From an uncultured Planctomycetaceae bacterium (GTDB taxonomy: Bacteria > Planctomycetota > Planctomycetia > Planctomycetales > Planctomycetaceae), in the NCBI GenBank assembly GCA_963815195.1, contig CAWFGE010000015.1, positions 544,001-608,000 on the forward strand: DNA of 64,000 bases. Direction: 5' to 3'. A model generated the notes under the pieces. That model was not told the DNA's origin and ran no database searches. It saw only the letters and a program-made list of their open reading frames with translations. Positions 1 through 5,525 of the stretch are shown one piece after another. Position 1 is the stretch's first letter, and each line of letters opens with the position of its first letter. The position numbers and the translations under genes are program-made.

Positions 1-32
1 CCTTCAAACCGGCACGCCCTGCGAAGTTCGTG
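1..32. repeat. Repeat downstream of immunity gene (copy cut by window edge)
   Basis: ccttcaaaccggcacgccctgcgaagttcgtg matches 3660-3691 at 27/32 positions. Confidence 0.8.
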
Positions 33-69
33 GGAAATATCGAACATTCCCAATGGCGGTGCTCATTAC

Positions 70-594
70 TCAAGGTATGATTTCGATTTCACCCTTGAGA
101 AGGGCTTCTTTCACTCGACGGGTCACACGATAAGTTTTGAACTGATGCCATTCGGGCGTAGCCTCACGGACCCAGCTGAATACCTTTTCTGCCCATTTTT
201 TGAAAGTTCGATCTTTATTAACAAGCGACTTTCCGTCATCACTCAAACGGGTCCAGTATGCAGCGAGGTTGAACTGTCCGAGCTTGTTGCCGTCTCGGAA
301 ATTGCCACGACGATACCCGACCAAACACGAGTCCATGCTAGTAACACAAAATCTCGGTTGGCCTTCAAATTCGACTTGCTTGACTATTCGCTTCTCCGCA
401 AAGTCTTCGAGACCGAATAATAGCTGGTCTGGGTCGTATCGAGAGATATAGTCATTCAACGGTTGAGGAACCAATTCGGATTCGGTCTCAACCGGACCTG
501 ACGGAAATGCAACAACGCACCCCGTTCCGTTCAGGAACTCAATGAACTGTTGTTCTTCTTCTGGGAATTGCCAAAACGTCACTACAGAAGGCAT
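70..594 (-). CDS. Putative immunity protein for the upstream Rhs toxin
   Basis: 174 aa ORF starting 15 bp after the Rhs stop on the same strand; no family recognised. Confidence 0.7.
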   Translation of the reverse strand: MPSVVTFWQFPEEEQQFIEFLNGTGCVVAFPSGPVETESELVPQPLNDYISRYDPDQLLFGLEDFAEKRIVKQVEFEGQPRFCVTSMDSCLVGYRRGNFRDGNKLGQFNLAAYWTRLSDDGKSLVNKDRTFKKWAEKVFSWVREATPEWHQFKTYRVTRRVKEALLKGEIEIIP

Positions 595-609
595 AGCGTT
601 ATCCGACTT

Positions 610-3366
610 TCATTCAAATGGTACATGAGTTGGAGTGCGTCGTGTTACTGGATGTGCGGGATCGACTGCTGGCGGTTGCTGACCCGGACGGAAAATAACT
701 GGCGGTGCATTCGGATTCGCTGGGTCCGTAACTACAATTGTCGCACTTGGCTCCGCCGCTCGAATGTCACGAATCTGCGTACGGCCCCAAGATTTAATGT
801 GTCCACTTGGGCCAAACCGCTCTGATTCGACGATCACTCGTCCATTTCCGGGATCAATTCGCTCACCTCTAATAGTTACGATCTGGCCGGGTTGACCAAC
901 TCCGTCGGGGACTCTCCCACCAACGGCCACAGGTTGCAGATCATTTACATCATTGTTTCTAGCCACGTCAGCGATGTGCTCTGGGTCACCGGGCCTTCCG
1001 GGGCGACCACCTGCCGCTGCTGGATCGAAGTGCTCCCGTTTCCACCTATCGAACGGCTTCGGATCTTGTCCTGCTTTGCGTTTAGCTTCGACGTACCGCT
1101 CGTATCTCCATTCTGCTGCTCCTGCCTCTCCAAATGCTGGCTTATTGGTTGTTGGGACATCCGGAGATTCAACACCTTGTCTTCCTGTGCCGAAATCTGC
1201 CTCGTGCCCAATAAACTCTCCACCCTCCAAATCCCCTTTTGGATTCGGTTTTCTCGGTGCAGGACCGCCCGGTGGTTCAGACAACCGTTTTATTGCCGCC
1301 CTTTCCGTAGCTGACAGCGTCACGTTGAGCAACCGCAGGAGCACTTCACCGCCAGCCATCGCCGCTCCAATTGTATCGCCTTTCTTATAGCTTCGGTAGC
1401 CTGAAATTGATCGAACAATGGCTGTCGTGCCCTCGACTGCCATGTCCGCGGCGAGAAGAGCTTTCCTTAGACGAGTACCCGCTTTAAAGATTTTGAAGAA
1501 TTTGAGAAAGAACAGAATATCGCTAGCTGTGGATAGGCTTACATTGATTTTCTCTTCCTGAGTCCAAACATCGTCGGATGCTGCCTCTTTGTATTCATGG
1601 TATGTACCAACGCCAGGAAGCATGGCACGGATGAATACGAGTAAATGTTCTAGAGCCTCGGCTTTACCACCCTCAAACTGTAATCGATCATTTTCTACTC
1701 GTTCAACGGCCTCCGATTGGATTAGCTTTTCCAGGTCTCCATTTAATAGTGTTTTGCTGTACACATTAACGACGCGGTATGAATTACCAAGAGTCATTTC
1801 AAAACCGGCTAGCGTCAACTTGCCATGTTGAGATAAATTCCTCTGAAGCAATAGATTCTTGGGTTTACCATCAAGACCGATGATCGGTATCGCTATGAAT
1901 TCGTAGGGTTTAAATACGCAGCCAGAACTGTACTCTCCATAATTAGTAGTTAGTGGAAGTGTTGTCGTGTAGTCTTTTACAGGCAGGCCGTTCTCCTTCG
2001 CGTAGGCTACAGCGTTATCTACACTCCTCTTTGGAATCGCATCAGGTGAGAAGTTTTCGAAGCCCTTCCAAATCTTCTCCAAGGCCTTTTTAGCCAAATC
2101 AATATCTGCGCGACGCTGCTCTTCTAACTCTCTCCGACTTCGAACCCGCTCCAGCCCCTCAGCCCAATTGTTGACGATTTGAACGATCTCACTTTCGGAG
2201 GAGCCTCGTCCGCGAAACCTTTCAATTAAGATGTCGACCTTTGTTGCGGAAAAGCCCGCTTCGATAGCGCGTTGTTTGGCTTCACTAAGTGCGCCTGACC
2301 ATTTTTTTCTTTCCTCTAAACGACGCCTCGCTTCCAACTTCTCCTTCTCTCGAATCTCTCTTCCGCCGACTTCCAATCTATATTCGCGTTCCAGTATTAT
2401 CACTAGTTTTTTCCACATGCTTCGTGCACGAGGGCTGTCCGATACTTCTAATGCAAGTGCCTTCTTGGCCAATCCAGCACCAATTTGGTCTTCGTTCAAA
2501 CCGAGTTCTTTAAGTTTGGTGAAAAGCGATAGCGCTTTCTGATAATCCGGGTTTGATGTCTTCTCGTCTGGGAGCGAGTTTGCCGATTGCTGCAATCCCG
2601 AAGGATCAGCCGCATTGGGCGAGTTATTTTTCACATACCGAAACAGGTTTTCCTCGTCGTCGCGCACAGGATCTTCCGACTTAAACCGCCCATTTGCGCT
2701 GTCGTATTCCCTCTGGCCTAAATTGTGGTTCCCCGTCGTGCCGTCGTATTGATAGCCTTTCTGGCCAACCCAGCGGAAGGGGTTTTCTGTTGTTCCCGTC
2801 GAAGCGAGTTCTTTGCCGAAGGCGCTATAGCTGTACTCATCGGTGACGACTTCGGTCGAATCCGTGAGGGCATCGGTGGAGCCGAGGGCGTCGTAGTGGT
2901 AGTAGGATGTTTCCGTGGCGTCGTGGCGGCTGATGAGGTTGCCGAATTCCTGCTGCTCGTAATGGTAATCCAGTTGCGGGGTGCCGAATTCGTCAGTCTC
3001 GTGCAGCAGGTTCTTTTTGTCCCAGAGATAGCCGACGTTGTCGATGTCCTCTTCACGGCCCACGCGCAGCAGGTCGCTATTGTAGGTGTAGGTCACCACG
3101 GTGCCGGTGGGCAGTTCCACCTGGGTGAGTTCGTTCTCGGCGTTCCAGGTGTTCGTGGTGAGGTCGCCGCTGGGTTCTTCTTTCGAACGCTGATTGCCGG
3201 CGTTATCGTACGTGTAGGTCGTGCGGTCGCCGATGCTGTCCAGCTTGACCAGAAGCTCATTTGCGGCATTATAGGTGGAAGTCGTGACCGCGCCGTCGGC
3301 GTCTTCCGTCAATCGGTTGCCTGTGGCATCGTACGTATAAGTCGTCCGACGGGGTGGCATGCTCAT
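610..3366 (-). CDS. 5'-truncated (orphan) Rhs/YD-repeat protein with long C-terminal toxin region
   Basis: YD repeats (TTYTYDATGNRL, TTYTYDNAGNQ), Rhs core (YHYDALGST, NPFRWVGQKGY, GRFKSEDP), DPSGL cleavage motif at 2593-2607; Rhs-like sequence stops at ~3349 against a repeat. Confidence 0.9.
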   Translation of the reverse strand: MSMPPRRTTYTYDATGNRLTEDADGAVTTSTYNAANELLVKLDSIGDRTTYTYDNAGNQRSKEEPSGDLTTNTWNAENELTQVELPTGTVVTYTYNSDLLRVGREEDIDNVGYLWDKKNLLHETDEFGTPQLDYHYEQQEFGNLISRHDATETSYYHYDALGSTDALTDSTEVVTDEYSYSAFGKELASTGTTENPFRWVGQKGYQYDGTTGNHNLGQREYDSANGRFKSEDPVRDDEENLFRYVKNNSPNAADPSGLQQSANSLPDEKTSNPDYQKALSLFTKLKELGLNEDQIGAGLAKKALALEVSDSPRARSMWKKLVIILEREYRLEVGGREIREKEKLEARRRLEERKKWSGALSEAKQRAIEAGFSATKVDILIERFRGRGSSESEIVQIVNNWAEGLERVRSRRELEEQRRADIDLAKKALEKIWKGFENFSPDAIPKRSVDNAVAYAKENGLPVKDYTTTLPLTTNYGEYSSGCVFKPYEFIAIPIIGLDGKPKNLLLQRNLSQHGKLTLAGFEMTLGNSYRVVNVYSKTLLNGDLEKLIQSEAVERVENDRLQFEGGKAEALEHLLVFIRAMLPGVGTYHEYKEAASDDVWTQEEKINVSLSTASDILFFLKFFKIFKAGTRLRKALLAADMAVEGTTAIVRSISGYRSYKKGDTIGAAMAGGEVLLRLLNVTLSATERAAIKRLSEPPGGPAPRKPNPKGDLEGGEFIGHEADFGTGRQGVESPDVPTTNKPAFGEAGAAEWRYERYVEAKRKAGQDPKPFDRWKREHFDPAAAGGRPGRPGDPEHIADVARNNDVNDLQPVAVGGRVPDGVGQPGQIVTIRGERIDPGNGRVIVESERFGPSGHIKSWGRTQIRDIRAAEPSATIVVTDPANPNAPPVIFRPGQQPPAVDPAHPVTRRTPTHVPFE

Positions 3367-3513
3367 GGCTTTGCATGAGCATGCGATTTGAGGAAACGTG
3401 GATTCTGAAAATCCGACGACATGATTAACGGAACCAGGGCAAAATGCAATGTCTCCAGCTTCATCAAGCGTCCCGAAGACATGCTCATGCAAAGCCATGA
3501 GCATGCCACCCCG
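3350..3513. repeat. REP-like doublet (REPIN-like), GGGTGG head plus hairpin
   Basis: Perfect 34 bp inverted repeat, 3350-3383 and 3480-3513; each arm contains the hairpin CATGCTCATG-N6-CATGAGCATG. Confidence 0.9.
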
Positions 3514-3605
3514 CCGTTTGGTAGTTGAAATGTCGAAGCTGCACCCTTGCCACGGGAATCGGCCCGTGAACAAGAGATTGAGAAAAAAGCCAAAGCCAGC
3601 GCCGT

Positions 3606-3691
3606 CAGGCGTGCCGGTGTTCAAGTCGTGAAAGCCTGCTGAGCTGGCACGCTTGCAGCCCTTCAAACCGGCACAGCCTGCCAAATTTGTG
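3606..3691. repeat. Imperfect inverted-repeat element downstream of SUKH gene
   Basis: caggcgtgccggtgttcaag pairs with cttcaaaccggcacagcctg; right part recurs at 1-32. Confidence 0.7.
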
Positions 3692-3712
3692 AGGCAGAAG
3701 CCGAAAGTGTGA

Positions 3713-4093
3713 TTACTGCCTGTAGCCATTGAGCAAAGACAAGAACTCGGATTCAACGGTGGTGTCAATTTCACCACGAGGACTAACTTCGACGATCCTC
3801 CAATTATCTGTTGGATCGAAGCCAAAGCAGTATCCTTGAAAGTCATCGCCGATCAGCAGGATGTCGGCCAGTCGCCCCGTAGCATTCGAGTAAACCTCAT
3901 GAGCTTCCACCGGCCCACTGTAGAGCGAAATGCCGCCAAGATTGCCATATCCAGCAATCTCAAGGAAACGGAGATAATGCTCCGGAATACCACGATATTT
4001 GCTGCGGAGCGTTTGCAGCTTTTGAACAGATGCCTTCGTCAGTGAACTCTCAGCACTGAAATGGCCAACGAGTTCTTCAAAGTTGCTCATCAT
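3713..4093 (-). CDS. SMI1/KNR4 (SUKH) family immunity protein
   Basis: IPEHYLRFLEIAGYG and LLIGDDFQGYCFGFD motifs; ATG 4 bp after the HNH fragment stop, preceded by GAGG. Confidence 0.8.
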   Translation of the reverse strand: MMSNFEELVGHFSAESSLTKASVQKLQTLRSKYRGIPEHYLRFLEIAGYGNLGGISLYSGPVEAHEVYSNATGRLADILLIGDDFQGYCFGFDPTDNWRIVEVSPRGEIDTTVESEFLSLLNGYRQ

Positions 4094-4097
4094 TGCC

Positions 4098-4313
4098 TCA
4101 CGGGAAAAGTGTTTCCATAATTGCCTCGAGATGAATGCCACTTTGGTGCTGGCTGGGAAATCTTGCTGGAGTCAGGTTCCACCATTCGTGCGGTCCACCG
4201 TATATGTTCTCGATGACGTGGTGCGCATCGTAGGGGTCGCCCACTTTCTTGTACACCTCACCACTCTTAGTATAAACCTCTTCGGTATACCGAGGCCACG
4301 ATTGGCCAGCCGA
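4098..4313 (-). pseudogene. Orphan HNH-type nuclease toxin C-terminal tip
   Basis: WPRY...YDAHHVIENIYGGPHEWWNL...HQSGIH; no delivery domain; 5' end abuts a GTAG REP. Confidence 0.75.
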
Positions 4314-4446
4314 GTAGGGCCGGCTGTGCCGGCCTTTTGTTTTTGACACAACGATTTTTCTCGCACCAAATGGCCGGCATACCCAGCCGCCAATTGGGCA
4401 TAAGTATGATTCCCTTCGTCGAAAAGGCCGGCACAGCCGGCCCTAC
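4314..4446. repeat. GTAG-type REP doublet
   Basis: Perfect 25 bp inverted repeat, 4314-4338 and 4422-4446: GTAG-GGCCGGC-TGT-GCCGGCC-TTTT. Confidence 0.9.
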
Positions 4447-4497
4447 GTCACTGTGTCACCTCTTCCTCGACCATGATAACCTCTTGTCGCTGCGCGA

Positions 4498-4526
4498 CCC
4501 AGGTTGCAAGCAACCTGGGCCACCCC
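4498..4526 (-). repeat. Single REP-like unit, GGGTGG head
   Basis: Minus strand reads GGGTGG-CCCAGGTTGC-TT-GCAACCTGGG. Confidence 0.75.
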
Positions 4527-4627
4527 GTGCGGCCGCGTTACTAACGACAATAAAAGTACCAAACAGCCCAAATCAAGGGGAAATAAGGGGTTCTGGAGTC
4601 TGCGGGAGACCGGTTACACCCATCAAA

Positions 4628-4650
4628 ACCGGCGGCTAGCGCCGTGCCGC
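4628..4650. repeat. Single arm of GCGGCACGGCGCTAGCCGCCGGT repeat family
   Basis: Matches arms at 37928-37992 and 44757-44821. Confidence 0.8.
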
Positions 4651-4654
4651 CCAC

Positions 4655-5525
4655 TCATCCGAGGAACCAGTTGTCGAGAGCGGTGAGGATGCCGCCGAAG
4701 ATGACGTCGACGAAGTCGCGGTCATCGCGGGGATTGAGATAACCCGGCGGGGGAGGGGAGGGTGTTCGGAGCTTGGGGCGGTTTTTCTCGAAGGCTTCGA
4801 TGGGATCGTCGGACTGGCCGCCGTCTGCGATCCAGCGGAGCACCTGATGAAGCTCGGCCGCATCGAACCACAGCCCGTGCTCTTTGCAGAGGTCGATGAT
4901 CACGCCGCTGCCGGTGCGCGTACTGCCGCCGGGACATGAGTTTTCCGCACTGAACGCAGGGGCGGTACAAGGGACCTTTCTGATCCGCTCGCTGGCGGGG
5001 CCGGGCCTGGGCGAACACGGCTTCGTCCAAGTGGGCGGCTCCGCGGGCCGTGCGGTCGCGGAGTTCCCGAAACGTTTCCACGCTCAGCCACAGCCCCGTG
5101 CACGCCTGGCATTCGAGGACGTTCAGCTTCTCGTGGCCCAGCTCCCGGCTCGCGAGATGCTCCGTGTCCGGACATGCCGGGCAGACGGCGTTCGAGTCTT
5201 TCCCGGCGATCGCCTCGGCGGCGAGCCTCTCGCCGCACTGCGAACAATAGCGGGCTTTGTCGCTCACGCGGGCGAGGCAATTCGGGCAGACGGTATTCAG
5301 ATCGCGTTCGTGCAGCGTGAAGTCGGCGCCGCAGAACCCGCAGTTCCGATCGCTCCCTTGGCGAGCGCCGCCGCACGAAGAGCACCGCACGACCGCCGCC
5401 TCGTGCCCCTGGGGCTTTCGAACCTTGAGCACCGCCCCGCAATGGCAGCGGAACTTCGCCCCGATCTTCCGCTCGCTCGTTTCATACCGGCGTAGGCAAT
5501 GCGGACACGCAACCAGCACGCGCAT
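4655..5525 (-). CDS. Multi zinc-ribbon protein (double zinc ribbon / zf-TFIIB-like), frameshift near 4915
   Basis: Many CxxC pairs; C-terminus VIIDLCKEHGLWFDAAEL continues in another frame. Confidence 0.75.

Follow-up and report, generated by a model that had tools for sequence, protein, structure and literature searches.

TnpA_REP, a REP-associated tyrosine transposase (RAYT) acting on repetitive extragenic palindromic (REP) sequences, cleaves DNA and transfers strands at CT, also far from a REP (PMC3333891, PMC8266576). In vitro work has demonstrated the strand transfer (PMC3333891), and the in vivo role of REP/RAYT systems is stated to be unclear (bioRxiv 2021.07.10.451892). REP doublets forming hairpins (REPINs) have been described as almost exclusively extragenic, and RAYTs as single-copy and immobile (bioRxiv 2021.07.10.451892). 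Some polyimmunity loci and rAID-1 arrays, which collect orphan immunity genes, have a nearby recombinase (PMC3482391, bioRxiv 471110). Literature searches that reached few subscription papers and no supplements turned up no work connecting junctions of the REP/RAYT kind with orphan toxin or immunity modules. Here we describe a toxin-immunity locus of an uncultured Planctomycetaceae bacterium, located at the start of a stretch of 64,000 nucleotides (nt) that we call the window (G000:C15:544001-608000), in which two toxin gene fragments begin at inverted REP doublets. The locus likely represents RAYT-made deletion or rearrangement junctions within an acquired toxin island. Observed directly are the junction dinucleotides, flanks that do not rejoin, absent gene halves, cognate RAYT genes and an empty site in the relative G002.

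The G000 genome assembly comprises 8.87 Mb in 25 contigs and is ~95% complete; its gene content and nearest toxin homologues suggest a planctomycete. Plain coordinates are window positions and C-prefixed ones refer to contigs; G001 and G002 are relatives compared at the orthologous site. On the minus strand the order of elements is REP, repeat, REP, doublet A, toxin tip, SUKH-like gene, repeat X, doublet B, Rhs fragment, a gene of 174 amino acids (aa) and repeat X, just as an earlier note on this DNA had read it.

Junctions at the doublet ends

The GTAG doublet A (4308-4452, 145 nt) is bounded by AG and CT and carries 25-nt arms (4314-4338 and 4422-4446) that are 100% complementary; its 14 copies in G000 are 97-100% alike, including the spacer. 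The GGGTGG doublet B (3347-3516, 170 nt) has CG at either end. The earlier note had both toxin fragments beginning near the outer heads of perfect inverted-repeat arms, and they do start at the doublet ends, to the base; the 37-nt arms of B are 97% complementary and so not perfect. Mapping against homologues confirmed the breakpoints. The toxin tip starts in mid-domain at the base after the CT of doublet A, 6 nt outside GTAG, and the Rhs fragment opens within a YD repeat, directly behind the terminal CG of doublet B. On its other side, doublet A ends a GGGTGGCCCAGG-type REP composite (4451-4529) at CT, and uninterrupted copies of this composite have CT there.

To compare junctions across G000, we applied an automated test in which the end dinucleotide was matched to an uninterrupted homologue elsewhere in the genome (at least 60 nt, at least 88% identity). 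Of 16 independent GTAG-type ends, 14 have the CT in common with the homologue, namely 7/8 for family A, 6/7 for R3 and 1/1 for R6, and both exceptions abut ends of insertion sequences (IS). The R3 count leaves out two duplicated junctions, and four R7 rows, which are IS ends or duplicates, are likewise left out. B ends share CG in 9/9 cases, 8 of them independent. The background dinucleotide frequencies are 4.6% for CT and 11.2% for CG. Because CT or CG is shared with the interrupted sequence, the junctions carry a RAYT signature.

Flanks rejoined across the doublet in none of the 17 ends tested, so there is no simple insertion among them. The earlier note had allowed that toxin homology might resume past the doublets; none was found beyond either one, the far sides being a REP (A) and repeat X (B), and the site is lineage-specific across genomes. 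Simple insertion into a toxin gene was rejected. A cross-rejoin test did not find the missing halves at other doublets, the nine matches listed being own flanks or repeat interiors, with one junction run on the wrong strand. The upstream halves of the HNH-like domain and of an AHH domain found elsewhere had no tblastn match in the ~95%-complete assembly. Local duplications of 200-290 nt terminate at B junctions.

The doublets interrupt many sequences other than toxins, including IS, IstB, ankyrin, Clp, ABC transporter and RAYT genes, a sulfatase-type gene and other REPs; in G001 they also interrupt an IS and a chaperone-like gene. We take neither the doublets nor the RAYT enzyme to be toxin-specific. 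Toxin specificity is further called into question by about 10 orphan toxin fragments without a REP at the 5' end, in an inventory that may miss fragments (a 4261-aa C10 query was out of frame and matched only itself), and by at least three doublets that keep a YD piece with the tip lost.

RAYT genes and related doublets

Doublet A shows the GTAG/GT[AG]G foot 5' of a hairpin and the inverted doublet arrangement of GTAG-type REPs. Both of its ends align to the ends of a RAYT element at C12:908693-909337, including the first codons of that gene, so doublet A looks like an internally deleted copy of this intact element. Two RAYTs lie above the NCBIfam NF047646 cut-off, one at C12:908.7k with the same GTAG arms as A and one at C11:44.4k adjoining a B doublet. 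Further B-type RAYT context is provided by arms around C13:63.1-63.8k and by a B-flanked gene in G001. G000 and G001 hold 13 RAYT matches each; many of those in G000 are fragments, and G001 has near-identical pairs. The CT/CG signature and the intact RAYTs with the same arms favour the RAYT involvement that had been proposed for this locus; the many non-toxin genes hit by doublets speak against an integron-like array.

The B doublets fall into divergent types. An identical copy of doublet B, at C20:287712-287881, likewise borders on a truncated toxin and on a piece of a Clp gene. There (C20:286.5-288.1k, L015), the copy is flanked by a Hint toxin tip and by the 3' portion of a Clp-like gene, both pointing outward, an arrangement that would fit an inversion within a toxin-Clp locus. 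At C15:626268-626346 (L017), two tandem B arms enclose a short piece of YD repeat. In G001, a RAYT fragment lies next to a DUF389 gene at a site that is occupied by a B doublet in G000.

Overall, the short repeats of G000 amount to ~3200 segments and belong to more than 40 families. Most of the abundant families avoid DNA of low guanine-cytosine content (low-GC), and doublet flanks are low-GC, like IS flanks. One group of short-repeat families (11 and 37) is CRISPR-repeat-like.

Toxin and immunity genes of the locus

The polymorphic toxin tip comprises the last 69 codons of its gene (4098-4307, minus strand) and contains an HNH-like motif. The domain continues upstream for at least 60 further residues in the 10 homologues aligned; related copies of the domain, with identities reaching 91%, belong to long carrier proteins of Rhs, Hint and other types. 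In 56 of 154 homologues the conserved Thr codon preceding the tip reads ACT, in keeping with a cut at CT but no proof of it. The only PDB match of the tip is an Rhs-family protein (E=4e-5). A toxin domain known from Rhs and Hint carriers is thus what stands of the earlier assignment as an HNH tip; HNH is a reading of the motif by eye, with no HNH match in Pfam. Tox-REHH was considered as an identity for the tip and dropped, as the accessible text of the Tox-REHH preprint offered no basis for it.

Behind the tip lies a complete SUKH-like gene (3713-4093, minus strand), which matches Pfam SUKH_6 below cut-off (E=0.003) and is 75% identical to the gene behind an intact toxin in another planctomycete locus, L117. 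The 5'-truncated Rhs gene (610-3346, minus strand) has 911 codons that encode YD repeats, an Rhs core and a long variable tail. The tail is possibly REase-like, a weak lead, and ESM Atlas yielded weak leads only. It is followed by the 174-aa gene (70-594, minus strand), which has no family match. We regard the SUKH-like and 174-aa proteins as putative immunity proteins, the former on its sub-cut-off match and the latter by position only; to that extent the immunity genes named before were recovered. Both pairs have the layout of a toxin-immunity module, and for the first this is a C-terminal toxin domain known on Rhs/Hint carriers, then an immunity gene.

Repeat X and the native cassette order

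Repeat X corresponds to the 3' portion of a conserved, convergently oriented frame that is rich in Pro and Lys, ~85-90 codons long and without a Pfam family. Among planctomycete toxin loci (L394-L411, L006, L117), the 5' end of this frame is variably truncated, and its 3' end lies where immunity-like genes end. Copy 1 (3517-3705, plus strand; repeat match 3544-3705) is a degenerate 3' part whose 5' part is missing at doublet B. Copy 2 (plus strand, 85% identical) covers positions 1-32 and runs on to C15:543886 (543886-544032), beyond which a partial Clp-like AAA gene follows. G000 has these two copies, and matches turned up in 21 of 400 further genomes from the class, paired 1.2-1.8 kb apart in five, in a survey that scored at most two candidates per genome.

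A co-oriented gene ends within ~25 nt of X or runs into it in 15 of 18 loci, and WHH, HHH or EndoU toxins and SUKH genes lie upstream of X in several. The genome G568 shows toxin, SUKH, small gene, X and Clp-like gene, the same order as in the window, and X directly follows the SUKH gene in L117, the closest intact homologue of the first cassette of the window. Among 19 other X loci scanned, none has a doublet-like GT[AG]G-hairpin pair and four have a single match. Because X-delimited loci elsewhere occur without doublets, the toxin-immunity-X period predates the doublets and is native to planctomycete toxin loci, judging by these sequence comparisons.

We rejected X as a REP-linked cassette end, given its two copies in G000 and the lack of doublet pairs in other X loci; it may instead be the true cassette handle of planctomycete toxin loci. 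X folds (z=-3.1), yet it reads as a conserved frame. As to attC-like sites, Rfam gave no match in the 7.7-kb locus, in a search that applied no attC model.

Insertion site and neighbouring features

The insert of ~5.7 kb in G000 is bordered by a double-zinc-ribbon gene on one side and by the leader of the next resident gene on the other. The orthologous site is empty in G002 (~110 nt); G001 has other cargo there, 7.4 kb long and including two RAYT elements, REPs and IS. Because the G002 site is empty and the G001 cargo differs, the insert is apparently a lineage-specific acquisition of G000.

The zinc-ribbon gene (4655-5525, minus strand; Pfam DZR) is resident, forms one border of the site and is frameshifted in the assembly; its orthologues are 89% (G001) and 66% (G002) identical. 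Frameshifts in this and another housekeeping-type gene region (C15 valS, left of the window) suggest long-read indel errors in the assembly. Next to it lies an abundant resident REP of family R5 (4629-4648, 256 matches), also present at the orthologous site of G001, and then a second short repeat (4534-4621), which recurs once more in G000 and several times in G001.

To the left of the window we found the partial Clp-like AAA gene, the leader region of the next resident gene and a broken IS, which we take to be IS481-like. A periodic array had been anticipated in this direction; the extension contains no further cassettes. The leader (C15:542.7-542.9k) contains a short Val/Ile/Gly-rich frame and a T-run, is attenuator-like, and is conserved in G000, G001 and G002. 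In G000 an IS lies between it and its resident gene. Among four genomes of the genus, gene order breaks where G000 has REP arrays (C20:122.8k, C15:626.9k, C23:42.8k; L385-L392).

Proposed mechanism

Our preferred reading, held with a confidence modestly above even, is that an acquired X-delimited toxin tail was trimmed by RAYT-catalysed single-strand exchanges between doublet ends and distant CT/CG sites. A planctomycete-type tail with the order toxin-immunity-X-toxin-immunity-X-Clp would have entered the genome at the site flanked by the zinc-ribbon gene and the next gene's leader. The RAYT, an HUH enzyme, would bind the REP hairpin on single-stranded DNA and nick between C and T (GTAG type) or at CG (GGGTGG type), with one nick at the end of the doublet and another at a remote position. 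Strand exchange, one end at a time, would then produce a deletion, duplication or inversion of adjacent DNA. Doublet A would in this way have replaced the 5' part of the toxin, and doublet B the 5' parts of X and of the Rhs gene. Such junctions would survive mainly in dispensable foreign DNA, and events losing the toxin body but keeping the immunity gene were probably favoured by a putative selection.

Several observations count against this reading. Two further A ends, checked manually against paralogues of 79-87% identity, show TT and not CT. For one enzyme, a GTGG foot was predicted to go with CC or CA (PMC8266576), and cleavage at CG was not found described in the accessible parts of the REP/RAYT literature examined. 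Same-family doublets within 3.3 kb of each other are direct repeats in 8/8 groups; in 6 of the 7 groups that were aligned, a doublet most resembles the one lying next to it, and the DNA separating them is novel. Direct, neighbour-related groups of this kind fit capture with duplication of the doublet at least as well as trimming, and without an intact parent island, in-place trimming and the capture of pieces look alike. In addition, neither doublet was spanned with both flanks by short-read contigs from three runs.

Genome-wide context and alternative explanations

Capture would mean that foreign DNA is joined at CT/CG, the doublet is duplicated and immunity-rich, REP-separated arrays grow. 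We consider this doubtful, although Ton-Hoang et al. (PMC3333891) anticipated that genes or pieces of genes could be sequestered by REP/RAYT units. Capture is best supported by pairs of doublets in direct orientation that are related to each other and enclose DNA unique in the genome, for example at C20:37657-39192, where the pair encloses a Hint-like tip and a small gene. This tip (C20:37797, Hint-like by eye) is one of several at REP heads. Domain support is available for the two tips of the window, a PT-HINT tip (C20:287706), an AHH tip (C20:124242) and an Rhs C-terminus (C15:408306). An EndoU tip at C12:180156 falls below cut-off (E=2e-4) and has no homologue in 250 genomes of the phylum, and there are six more candidate tips. 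For most candidate tips and small genes, Pfam and NCBIfam offered no family name. At C11:81.7-86.2k (L277), a 542-codon toxin-like fragment starts from an R3 head and is followed by a 270-aa gene and a Clp-like gene ending at another REP.

To quantify such arrangements, we defined a signature as a start-less open frame running from the head, then a small low-GC gene. It occurs at 14/63 low-GC heads of families A, B and R3, compared with 44/1500 random low-GC sites (p=2e-8) and 4/72 IS ends (p=0.005), with the three families picked after seeing matches and about 5 of the 15 signature hits of one run looking spurious. Heads of four other REP families gave 0/67, which speaks against capture. In relatives the signature is at background (4/89 low-GC heads), in a sample that is a non-random part of the REP loci with mostly 1.5-kb flanks. 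The enrichment at REP heads that the earlier note had proposed to test for therefore holds for three families in G000 and was not replicated in the sampled loci of relatives.

Small low-GC open reading frames (ORFs) also fit capture, since 15/173 have RAYT-type REPs on both sides as against 3/1538 high-GC ORFs; IS ends flank 3/173. In G001, a co-oriented run of 6 kb with SUKH, a SUKH fragment, ankyrin and small genes separated by doublets points the same way. Two such stretches were seen there, G001:C25:154.3-160.5k (L359) and G001:C30:403-410k (L111), with co-oriented small low-GC genes or fragments (SUKH, cut SUKH, ankyrin, a YD piece) separated by doublets of several families; L111 begins behind an intact RAYT. 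In G000, however, co-orientation of REP-separated low-GC genes shows no excess (5/9 versus 22/30 controls, one of the nine pairs resting on a mis-called antisense ORF). The cassettes of the window moreover lie between different doublet families in an order native to X-delimited loci, and the orphan toxins without REPs likewise count against capture.

A second alternative, which we judge unlikely, invokes simple insertions at CT/CG followed by homologous recombination between direct copies, leaving one doublet with mismatched flanks. It accounts for the window as well as trimming does. The near-identical copies of A are clustered in direct orientation, and copy-copy recombination is a frequent cause of missing IS target duplications (PMC11708052). 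The 17 tested ends nevertheless include zero simple insertions, the divergent types of B doublets would recombine poorly, and the reciprocal half was not found.

Flanks mis-joined over collapsed 145-170-nt repeats in assembly are a very improbable source of the junctions. One low-depth short-read contig does link the right flank of the window to the left flank of another copy. Multi-copy IS of 1-1.8 kb are resolved within long contigs, however, and together with the frameshifts this suggests a long-read assembly; mis-joins would also put the missing halves at other doublets, where they were not found, and private doublet alleles track physical neighbours. Chance overlap can practically be dismissed, since the junctions are base-exact with a fixed dinucleotide and the signature is at 0/3614 ends of nine abundant repeat families, for all the abundance of short repeats and the shared low GC of doublet and IS flanks.

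Significance and comparison with known systems

Trimming by RAYT-catalysed exchange, as preferred here, would make REP doublets a possible route to orphan toxin-immunity modules that is independent of homologous recombination. G000 shows REP doublets cutting genes and rearranging islands, and it offers two dozen junctions matching TnpA_REP chemistry, with the junctions themselves suggesting CG as a second target. We give a low probability to the broader proposal that mobile RAYT elements and collapsed doublets act as an HUH-based gene capture that builds lineage-specific immunity-rich arrays. If true, it would give REP/RAYT systems a host-beneficial role in interbacterial defence.

With REP/REPIN-RAYT systems the locus shares the GTAG foot and perfect hairpin, the inverted doublet, a RAYT flanked by the same REPs and CT junctions. 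Doublet A resembles the short perfect REPs of group 3 / subclass 2.5 (PMC8266576, PMC3333891, PMC3116915, PMC6006769). Unlike described REPINs, the doublets here truncate genes with flanks that never rejoin, the genome holds 13 RAYT matches, A resembles a deleted RAYT element, and one family joins at CG.

IS26-type arrays, with direct copies around cargo, bear a likeness to the doublet groups. IS-mediated adjacent deletions and duplications share the joining of an element end to a new site with loss of neighbouring DNA (PMC11708052). The unit here differs in being a non-autonomous, HUH-dependent element of 145-170 nt with a dinucleotide target, and not a DDE element.

The integron-like array that the earlier note had envisaged is not supported for the locus, which has only two cassettes, a toxin-immunity-X period that is native to loci without doublets, and no excess of co-orientation around it in G000. 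Mid-domain cuts and two doublet families also set it apart from integrons and rAID arrays. No tyrosine recombinase was seen among the ORFs at or left of the locus, and no genome-wide integrase search was made. Polyimmunity loci and rAID-1 arrays share low-GC orphan immunity genes and intergenic repeats (PMC3482391, bioRxiv 471110). In contrast to rAID-1, the locus has no visible XerD-like recombinase, multi-family RAYT-type REPs and cuts within genes, and arrays in G000 are short and not consistently co-oriented.

Classical orphan Rhs and contact-dependent inhibition (CDI) modules share a toxin C-terminus and immunity gene without the delivery part (bioRxiv 10.64898/2026.07.13.738213), whereas in the HNH-like and AHH tips the cut falls within the toxin domain itself and leaves no shared handle for homologous recombination. 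Finally, TnpA_REP-procA in picocyanobacteria likewise links RAYT-family genes to a diversified, conflict-type gene set (bioRxiv 2020.03.09.984088). That link is one of co-location and involves a different RAYT group, with the causal claim withdrawn by its authors, whereas in G000 it takes the form of base-level junctions.

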